Shown one piece after another: positions 20,254 through 21,426 of a DNA stretch of 64,000 bases. The notes beneath the pieces are model-generated. The model ran no database searches and was not told where the DNA came from. It was given only the letters and a program-made list of their open reading frames with translations. Within the stretch, counting starts at the first letter, position 1, and every line of letters starts with the position of its first letter. Where the stretch lies: assembly GCF_056712565.1 (NCBI RefSeq), contig NZ_CM160072.1; one strand, given 5' to 3'. Made by a program: the position numbers and the translations under genes.

Positions 20254-20295
20254 CCCGCATTTCGGCGGGAATGAGGACCATGACTGTTAAAGAGC
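20254..20295 (-). promoter_or_regulatory. nutR (boxA GCTCTTTAAC plus boxB hairpin)
   Basis: On minus strand between cro and cII; boxB CCCGC-loop-GCGGG also found at nutL. Confidence 0.6.
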
Positions 20296-20302
20296 AATTT
20301 GC

Positions 20303-20488
20303 TTATGCCGCTTTGCGGTAAGCGCTTTCTTGATACTTCAGGGCGCCAGCTGTAACGACTTCCAGTCGATAGGCGTCTTTCTCTGGGATGACTTCCTTCC
20401 ACTGAGAGACTGCTGCGTCGCTAATGCCTAACGCTTTAGCTACAGCACGCTGGGTTCCGAAGTGGTCGATAACATCTTTCTTGTACAT
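20303..20488 (-). CDS. cro: Cro repressor (P22-type)
   Basis: 61-aa ORF MYKKDVIDHFGTQRAVAKALGISDAAVSQW... matching recalled P22 Cro. Confidence 0.9.
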   Translation of the reverse strand: MYKKDVIDHFGTQRAVAKALGISDAAVSQWKEVIPEKDAYRLEVVTAGALKYQESAYRKAA

Positions 20489-20494
20489 AGACTC

Positions 20495-20568
20495 GCTCCG
20501 AAATTAAAGAACACTTAAATTATCCACTAAAGGAATCTTAAGTCAAGTTTATTTAAGATGTCTTAACT
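20495..20568. promoter_or_regulatory. OR operator region with divergent PR/PRM
   Basis: Three sites with AAG-N4-CTT cores (about 20502-20519, 20525-20542, 20550-20567) between divergent cro and c2. Confidence 0.7.
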
Positions 20569-21219
20569 ATGAAAACTCAATTGATGGGAGAGCGCATTCG
20601 CGCTCGGAGAAAAGAACTCAAGATCAGGCAGGCCGCACTTGGAAAGATGGTCGGCGTGTCTAATGTTGCCATATCTCAGTGGGAACGCTCTGAGACAGAG
20701 CCAAATGGAGAGAATCTTCTCGCCCTGGCTAATGCGTTGAAGTGTTCCCCTGACTATCTGATGAAAGGAGAGGAAAGTCTTTCAAACATTGCCTATCACA
20801 GTAGGCATGATCCAAGAGGGTCATACCCTCTGATTAGCTGGGTGAGCGCAGGATGCTGGATGGAAGCTGTAGAACCATATCATAAGCGTGCAATAGATAA
20901 CTGGTACGATACAACCGTAGACTGTTCAGAAGATTCGTTTTGGTTGGACGTGAAGGGAGACTCAATGACGGCTCCGGCCGGTCTCAGTATCCCTGAAGGA
21001 ATGATAATACTCGTCGATCCTGAAGTAGAGCCGCGTAACGGGAAACTGGTAGTTGCAAAGCTCGAAGGAGAAAACGAGGCAACTTTCAAGAAGTTAGTTA
21101 TTGATGCAGGCAGGAAGTTTCTAAAACCACTTAACCCACAATATCCGATGATCGAGATCAACGGAAACTGCAAAATCATCGGCGTAGTTGTCGATGCAAA
21201 ACTAGCAAACCTTCCATAA
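20569..21219 (+). CDS. c2: Prophage repressor (P22 C2-type, LexA-like S24 autopeptidase)
   Basis: 216-aa ORF with N-terminal HTH and C-terminal S24 domain, near-identical to recalled P22 C2. Confidence 0.95.
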   Translation: MKTQLMGERIRARRKELKIRQAALGKMVGVSNVAISQWERSETEPNGENLLALANALKCSPDYLMKGEESLSNIAYHSRHDPRGSYPLISWVSAGCWMEAVEPYHKRAIDNWYDTTVDCSEDSFWLDVKGDSMTAPAGLSIPEGMIILVDPEVEPRNGKLVVAKLEGENEATFKKLVIDAGRKFLKPLNPQYPMIEINGNCKIIGVVVDAKLANLP

Positions 21220-21243
21220 GGGGGCATTCGCCCCTTTTTTTTT
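21220..21243 (+). terminator. Rho-independent terminator after repressor gene
   Basis: GGGGGC-ATTC-GCCCC followed by T9. Confidence 0.7.
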
Positions 21244-21284
21244 ATTTCCTTTAAAAATCAAAGCCAAACTTAAGTTACGAAAGA

Positions 21285-21341
21285 AAATTTAAGTTTTCTT
21301 CAAAAATGCTCTTGACCATTAATTAAAGAGATCTTAAATTT
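21285..21341 (+). promoter_or_regulatory. OL operators and candidate PL
   Basis: Two AAG-N4-CTT operators (21286-21303, 21321-21338) around TTGACC (21312-21317) and TAAATT (21336-21341), 17-bp spacer. Confidence 0.55.
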
Positions 21342-21386
21342 AAGCCATCAGCAGGACGCTGGAAGCCAAACGGAACAGATTGGCAG

Positions 21387-21426
21387 GCTCTTTAACATTG
21401 ATGGGATTGTCCCGCCGAAATGCGGG
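21387..21426 (+). promoter_or_regulatory. nutL (boxA GCTCTTTAACA plus boxB hairpin)
   Basis: boxA 21387-21397; boxB CCCGC-CGAAAT-GCGGG 21411-21426, same stem as nutR. Confidence 0.6.

Follow-up and report, generated by a model that had tools for sequence, protein, structure and literature searches.

The two matched sites that bracket the immunity region of the window (the whole 64,000-nucleotide stretch of contig NZ_CM160072.1 that was analysed) are very probably nutL and nutR of an E. coli prophage of the P22 family that resembles CUS-3, and the letters of its boxB hairpins and N protein put it in the HK620 specificity class of the lambdoid N/nut antitermination systems. The two sites and their parts are as follows.

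20254..20295, minus strand: nutR, between cro and cII; the putative nutR of the HK620 record is the same sequence
20286-20295, minus strand: nutR boxA, GCTCTTTAAC, exact match
20270-20285, minus strand: nutR spacer, AGTCATGGTCCTCATT, 16 nt
20254-20269, minus strand: nutR boxB, CCCGCCGAAATGCGGG, that is CCCGC-CGAAAU-GCGGG
21387..21426, plus strand: nutL, the same sequence as the annotated HK620 nutL
21387-21396, plus strand: nutL boxA, GCTCTTTAAC, exact match
21397-21410, plus strand: nutL spacer, ATTGATGGGATTGT, 14 nt
21411-21426, plus strand: nutL boxB, CCCGCCGAAATGCGGG, a 16-mer identical to the nutR boxB

The identification is correct but ordinary, as the sites are already known from the HK620 record (NC_002730), which annotates them as "nutL; putative N-utilization leftward" and "nutR; putative N-utilization rightward". 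Because the same sites stand in this public record and the window is essentially CUS-3, the feature is not new, and nothing is added to genome annotation beyond the HK620 entry. The preliminary description had paired a boxA-like sequence with a CCCGC-6 nt-GCGGG hairpin at each site, and this pairing was confirmed base for base, with the boxA being exactly GCTCTTTAAC at both. A pattern search of the 64-kb window returned exactly two copies of the 16-mer CCCGCCGAAATGCGGG; with up to three mismatches allowed, 0.43 matches are expected by chance, and three or more matches occurred in 0 of 100 shuffles. The boxA 10-mer is present in three exact copies in the window, the third of which, at 61883, was rejected as a nut site, being without a hairpin and set in a REP-like host intergenic context. 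Both nut copies follow the transcription of their operons, with boxA 5' of boxB in each. The loop CGAAAU is asymmetric and keeps the same RNA sense on opposite DNA strands, indicating an RNA rather than a DNA element.

The genes and signals around the two sites are listed below.

19901..20194, minus strand: cII, the first gene past nutR (Pfam Phage_CII, E 5e-48)
20303..20488, minus strand: cro, P22_Cro family (Pfam PF14549, E 8.7e-28)
20519..20546, minus strand: PR hexamers TTGACT and GATAAT, 16 nt apart (consensus scan)
20569..21219, plus strand: prophage repressor with HTH_3 and Peptidase_S24 domains, of the P22 c2 / phage 21 cI type (Pfam; matching phage records' annotations)
21312..21340, plus strand: PL hexamers TTGACC and TAAATT, 17 nt apart (consensus scan; aligns with the phage 21 PL region)
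21741..22040, plus strand: N gene, 99 amino acids (phrog_271 "anti-termination protein N-like", E 2.9e-36)
21774-21821, plus strand: ARM of N, NARNRRRARRQAQREQ, residues 12-27

The location of nutR on the minus strand between cro and cII, and of nutL on the plus strand past PL, had also been given in the preliminary description and agrees with the open reading frames, the Pfam matches and the promoter scan. With the cro stop at 20303 and the cII start at 20194, nutR fits into the gap between these genes, about 215 nt past PR; nutL follows PL by about 40 nt and precedes N by 315 nt. The annotated PL start of phage 21 is 40 nt before its boxA-L.

Both nut sites of the window agree with those of HK620 in every base of boxA, spacer and boxB; the base preceding the nutR boxA differs. 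The combination of boxB CCCGCCGAAAUGCGGG at both sites with an N beginning MTVVITYLADDNARNRRRARRQAQREQ is common to the window, HK620, HK630, HK140 and CUS-3. None of the lambda boxB GCCCUGAARAAGGGC, the P22 boxBs GCGCUGACAAAGCGC/CCGCCGACAACGCGG or the CUAACC-hexaloop boxBs of phage 21 was found in positions 17001-24000 of the window, and the window ARM differs from the lambda, P22 and phage 21 ARMs. The comparison with the specificities of lambda, 21 and P22, which had been proposed as a check on the boxB loop, thus gave none of the three and the HK620 type instead. Outside the nut sites the relationships are mixed. CUS-3 is 99.5% identical to the window over 92% of the window's first 20 kb, and the virion genes and repressor of the window are of the P22 family. 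The immunity module is of the HK620 type in HK620, whereas that of the window is of the P22/phage 21 type, and between nutL and N the window has about 205 nt more leader than HK620, as do CUS-3 and HK140.

The N protein of the window is a three-part mosaic, with tblastn placing the divisions at residues 1-36, 37-64 and 65-99. Residues 1-64 are 95-100% identical to HK620-type N; relative to HK620 N itself, residues 1-54 are identical and the identity over 1-64 is 95%. Both the middle (37-64) and the C-terminus (65-99) are of the phage 21 type, and residues 37-99 share 92% identity with phage 21-type N (the imm21 N of phage DE3 and lambda h434 imm21), whereas residues 1-36, which include the ARM, are unrelated to phage 21 N. 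The C-terminus of HK620 N is of the 933W/P22 type (…CLPNVAIYAAGYRKSKQLTAR), in contrast to that of the window N at 65-99, which is of the phage 21/lambda type (…NRIYYRKPRSEMGVTCVGRQKMKLGSKPLI). In the antitermination complex 6GOV, the lambda N chain (6gov_N) offers a further match to the C-terminus of the window N, at its residues 75-110 (E 0.0012). The Pfam N_peptide model scored below its cut-off on this protein (19.4 versus 27.9 bits), and N was therefore assigned through PHROG 271 and its direct homology to the N proteins of phage 21 and HK620.

Phage 21 provides the closest view of what has been exchanged around the hairpins. Its reference record, OL657228, annotates boxA-L, nutL, boxA-R and nutR, and a structure of its N peptide with boxB is available (PDB ID 1NYB). 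The immunity regions of phage 21 and the window share 87% identity and have their nut sites at the same positions. On the left side, near-identity with the window covers the PL leader and boxA as well as the leader past the nut site, with a boxC-like GGCTTTGGGGTG, and on the right side the same holds for the cro 3' end and boxA. The agreement breaks off exactly where the nut stem-loops are annotated: there phage 21 has CTCAACCTAACCGTTGAG and CACCTCTAACCGGGTG and the window has CCCGCCGAAATGCGGG, so that boxBs reading CUCAAC-CUAACC-GUUGAG and CACCU-CUAACC-GGGUG stand against CCCGC-CGAAAU-GCGGG. The ARMs differ as well, being GTAKSRYKARRAELIAERR in phage 21 and NARNRRRARRQAQREQ in the window. The two hexaloops may nevertheless be alike in plan, with C·C around a GNRA-like UAAC in phage 21 and C·U around GAAA in the window. 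The window boxA is that of phage 21, and the BoxA of lambda imm21 is identical to the E. coli BoxA (PMC3177189), which makes the window boxA rrn-type.

To relate boxB to N more widely, N proteins and nut sites were extracted from 13 named phages, which fall into four ARM types.

HK620 ARM: the window and CUS-3 (phage 21-type C-terminus), HK620, HK630 and HK140 (933W/P22-type C-terminus); boxB CCCGCCGAAAUGCGGG at both sites
Phage 21 ARM: phage 21 (phage 21-type C-terminus), VT1-Sakai and HK629 (933W/P22-type C-terminus); CUAACC-hexaloop boxBs
P22 ARM: Stx2a_EH0505 and ENT47670 (phage 21-type C-terminus); boxB GCGCUGACAAAGCGC at nutL and ACCGCCGACAACGCGGU at nutR
Lambda ARM: HK544, Sf6 and mEp213; boxB GCCCUGAA(A/G)AAGGGC

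Across the four types (lambda, P22, 21 and HK620) the ARM predicts the boxB without exception in the 13 phages, and the C-terminal domain of N reassorts independently. The pairing of ARM and boxB is seen again in 75 of 80 and 112 of 120 contigs of metagenomic and prophage origin. The phage 21-type C-terminus is found with a phage 21, P22 or lambda ARM, and the boxB is then of the phage 21, P22 or lambda type, respectively; conversely, the HK620 ARM has the same boxB whether its C-terminus is of the phage 21 type or the 933W/P22 type. In this reassortment of ARM and C-terminus, nature has in effect carried out a domain-swap experiment at the level of sequence. The co-variation agrees with published work in which specificity resides in the N-terminal part of N (PMC8022706; PMC2629481). 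It also lends support to the earlier suggestion of an N-dependent circuit with a single specificity matched to the ARM, and by analogy with the characterized systems the window ARM would bind its boxB and bring about antitermination in this prophage. In the wider data set the exchange amounts to a clean natural domain swap in which N residues 1-36 appear to determine the choice of boxB. The N of VT1-Sakai was rejected as the H-19B N of published assays, as it has a phage 21 ARM; H-19B N has 127 amino acids and the ARM RSRRRER (PMC3526286).

The boxB loop of the window, C-GAAA-U, most likely folds as a GNRA tetraloop with a C·U mismatch as its closing pair. Lambda boxB, GCCCU-GAAAA/GAAGA-AGGGC, has a pentaloop on an A-U/G-C stem in contrast to the hexaloop of the window, the lambda boxA CGCUCUUA differs from the rrn-type GCUCUUUAAC of the window, and the ARM sequences differ. 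Lambda nevertheless resembles the window in its overall circuit, in a purine-rich loop containing GAAA, in the RRR-x-RR pattern of the ARM and in a homologous polymerase-binding tail of N. The P22-type N-nut system (P22 gp24) was represented by Stx2a phage EH0505 and Cronobacter phage ENT47670. Its nutR boxB, ACCGC-C-GACAA-C-GCGGU, has nearly the stem of the window, and a pyrimidine-pyrimidine mismatch closes a GNRA-like loop, but that loop is GACAA with an extruded C, compared with GAAA in the window; the P22-type ARM is GNAKTRRHERRRKLAIER, and the P22-type spacer has 7 nt compared with 16 in the window. The HK620-type pair could represent a fourth, functionally orthogonal mode of ARM-RNA recognition, in which a canonical GAAA tetraloop closed by C·U, with no pentaloop and extruded base, is bound by an ARM without the lambda tryptophan, a proposal to which we give slightly less than an even chance. 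A further N/nut type, with an N beginning MNAKQRCKLRRLERR, has boxBs with GCAA and GAGA tetraloops. If the proposal is true, the HK620 type and the MNAKQRCKLRRLERR type would together define a "true GNRA" sub-family of boxB, and synthetic biology would gain an additional orthogonal peptide-RNA tether.

Against this proposal, the elements may be genuine nut sites that have no specificity of their own, with a shared GNRA-like surface allowing N to cross-react with lambda or P22 N or with an HK022-type Nun, so that the class would be a functional variant of an existing one. We regard this as unlikely, although it is the best of the competing explanations. The window ARM ARNRRRARRQAQ and the lambda ARM AQTRRRERRAEKQ share the pattern A-x-x-RRR-x-RR-x-x-x-Q, the loop core GAAA is like the lambda GAAAA, the stem and flanking C are like those of the P22-type nutR ACCGC-C-GACAA-C-GCGGU, and the titles of Cocozaki 2008 and Franklin 2004 indicate that the requirements of P22 and lambda overlap or can be morphed. 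In the phages sampled, however, the HK620 ARM occurs only with its own boxB, and the departures are incomplete loci (contig L058 and the second N of mEp213). In mEp213, lambda-type N accompanies lambda-type nut sites, and the HK620-type N is merely a downstream second copy with a degenerate boxB that has no boxA. Phages that differ in the ARM alone have another boxB. In the lambda N-boxB structure a tryptophan of N stacks on the loop, and the window ARM has no such residue.

Conservation of the HK620-type sites was followed in 80 viral contigs encoding a window-type N. The exact 16-mer is present once per strand, in the expected divergent layout, in 75 of the 80. The remaining five comprise one contig without upstream flank (L031), one with only 428 nt of flank (L076), one in which N is fused to unrelated upstream DNA and nutL is missing (L058), and two without nutR within 3 kb (L077 and L081). 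With HK620, HK630, HK140 and CUS-3 also carrying the 16-mer, the loss of conservation at nut positions that would have spoken against the preliminary description was not seen among the relatives. The contigs can be grouped by their boxB-to-boxB spacing (about 1170, 1712, 1756, 2300 or 2878 nt), and the cro 3' end, which precedes the nutR boxA, comes in at least four unrelated versions; identical nut sites thus enclose different immunity modules. In anchored comparisons the nut modules are islands of 99-100% identity, with mosaic junctions directly 5' of the nutR boxA and 3 nt past the nutL boxB. Neither boxA nor boxB shows a substitution in 150 aligned copies, and the spacers and flanks vary. 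Over more than 260 copies boxB does not change at a single position, which leaves the stem with no support from covariation or compensatory changes within the class. When the nutR boxA plus spacer was used as the anchor, 120 contigs were recovered, of which 112 have the exact boxB, 4 the phage 21 boxB and 4 a further type. Among 5,426 complete E. coli genomes, 500 (about 9%) contain the nutR segment.

Both boxB hairpins are present in the minimum-free-energy RNA folds, each with five G-C pairs and a 6-nt loop. The stem is extendable to 6 pairs at nutL and to 7-8 at nutR, and the nutL hairpin persists when the entire PL leader is folded. A pairing of the nutL boxA with AAAGAGU just past boxB, predicted in the local fold, was rejected as a conserved feature because 8-9 of 77 nutL copies differ there, nutR is without it and the full-leader fold does not contain it. 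A scan of the whole window with Rfam gave no family at the gathering score, so that no curated model of a nut site or boxB could serve for comparison. The stability of these G+C-rich hairpins, in a PL leader that is unusually structured (z = -4.5), would fit N-independent RNA elements such as terminators, attenuators or stems for stability or processing, which reached the nut positions through a shared leader. This explanation is very improbable, as there is no T run past either hairpin and neither scored as terminator-like, the same 16-mer stands 14-16 nt past a perfect boxA in two otherwise unrelated contexts, and the hairpin changes with the ARM while the surrounding leader stays constant. 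Still harder to credit are double-stranded DNA sites bracketing the immunity region, that is, inverted repeats for a dimeric protein, for instance recombination or boundary sequences: mosaic junctions do adjoin both sites, and a "boundary sequence" is marked between cI and N in CUS-3, but the non-palindromic 6-nt centre keeps its sense relative to transcription and not to DNA, a DNA site would not account for why the 16-mer goes together with a boxA on the transcribed strand and with the ARM type, and selection on recombinants is expected to leave junctions beside functional islands that are conserved.

With the sites read as nutL and nutR, a mechanism can be proposed from the homologous systems of lambda, phage 21 and P22, including the presumed dependence on Nus factors. 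The PL and PR transcripts would each carry an rrn-type boxA as the loading site for NusB-NusE, and the boxB hairpin would emerge 14-16 nt past it. The N-terminal ARM NARNRRRARRQAQREQ would then bind the hexaloop C-GAAA-U, and the central and C-terminal parts of N would contact NusA and RNA polymerase, thereby tethering the complex. On the right, the modified polymerase would pass the Rho-dependent tR1, overlapping or just past nutR, into cII and the replication genes. In lambdoid phages tR1 overlaps the nutR/rut region (PMC3526286), and the HK620 record annotates tR1 directly after nutR; being Rho-dependent, this terminator is not recognisable by sequence in the window. On the left, the polymerase would also pass two intrinsic-terminator-like hairpins past N.

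22624..22649, plus strand: intrinsic-terminator-like hairpin GCCCTC-CAGTGT-GAGGGC (22624-22641) with a T run, candidate tL1
22662-22681, plus strand: second intrinsic-terminator-like candidate, on the PL strand past N

From its position past N on the PL strand, the element at 22624..22649 is a candidate for the tL1 that N-modified polymerase must read through.

The prophage therefore appears to have an intact early antitermination circuit, consisting of N and both nut sites, which bears on its inducibility. Experiments on HK620-type or CUS-3 N/nut were not found in the searchable literature, the coverage of which does not extend to the HK620 genome paper. The HK620 class is very common, yet a biochemical characterization was not found for it, unlike for lambda, P22 and phage 21.

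One more element of the left leader was noted beyond boxA and boxB.

21442..21458, plus strand: boxC-like GGCTTTGGGGTGACGTG, 16 nt past the nutL boxB, forming the 5' arm of a long leader hairpin

BoxC has been named as part of the lambda nut region (PMC2724277), and the boxC-like element may have a corresponding role here. The motif GGCTTTGGGGTG is also found 3' of nutL in phage 21 and 3' of the lambda-type nutL in HK544 and Sf6.

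An additional N/boxB type was found in four IMG/VR contigs (L113, L182, L203, and L210), in which N starts with MNAKQRCKLRRLERRSEERNS. The nutR site of this type has the same boxA and spacer start as that of the window, and its boxB reads UCCCUGC-C-GCAA-U-GUGGGGA, where GCAA is a GNRA tetraloop with a C·U closing pair. The nutL boxB of L113 is GUAUGCC-GAGA-GGUGUAC, and its GAGA loop is likewise a GNRA tetraloop, closed by a C-G pair.

Phage mEp213 (L086) contains two N genes of different type, in the following segments:

2016–2348 and 3126–3773 of mEp213: region with both a lambda-type N and an HK620-type N

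The lambda-type N is accompanied by lambda-type nut sites. The second N, of HK620 type, lies approximately 1.5 kb downstream of it; the sole nut element in front of this second gene is a degenerate boxB (CCCTCCGAAATGCGGG), and boxA is missing. The arrangement looks like what is left of a module exchange. In the IMG/VR contig L058 (2600–3300) the HK620-type N gene is intact, with unrelated DNA abutting its ribosome-binding site, and neither nutL nor nutR was found within 3 kb of the gene, so that L058 probably represents a prophage that is defective or has been rearranged. In a further IMG/VR contig, L027, the nutL spacer ATTGATGGGATTGT is found between nutR flanks in one nutR copy, a pattern suggestive of an exchange, by gene conversion or recombination, between nutL and nutR within a single phage.

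A third exact copy of GCTCTTTAAC in the window, at 61883–61892 (plus strand), lies within REP-like host intergenic sequence with no adjoining hairpin and was dismissed as a chance match.

The PL leader of the window (21347–21740, plus strand) is predicted to be unusually structured, with an MFE of −140 kcal/mol (z = −4.5), and its predicted fold includes a long hairpin at approximately 21442–21520 (plus strand) that has the boxC-like motif as its 5' start. Compared with phage 21 and HK620, approximately 205 nt of extra sequence precede N in the window, CUS-3, and HK140. This insert contains the following:

21573–21578, plus strand: strong Shine-Dalgarno sequence AGGAGG
21583–21588, plus strand: start-stop mini-ORF ATG-TGA, after AGGAGG

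In a local fold of 21387–21437 (plus strand), the nutL boxA (GCUCUUU) is able to pair with AAAGAGU directly 3' of boxB, which would enclose the boxB hairpin. The pairing is not kept in 8–9 of the 77 nutL copies, has no equivalent at nutR, and is missing when the full PL leader is folded.

Three further features were located around the regulatory core of the window:

19606–19878, minus strand: conserved phage ORF of 90 aa (phrog_2519), between cII and replication gene
19925–19952, plus strand: strong intrinsic terminator (12-pair stem and trailing T run), antisense to cII 3' end
22049–22519, plus strand: conserved phage ORF of 156 aa (phrog_1636), directly 3' of N

The terminator is probably that of the oop antisense RNA, because a lambda oop-like RNA is annotated at the matching position in HK629. 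The two ORFs lie one on either side of the core, and the position of the phrog_1636 ORF approximates that of ral in CUS-3 and HK140.
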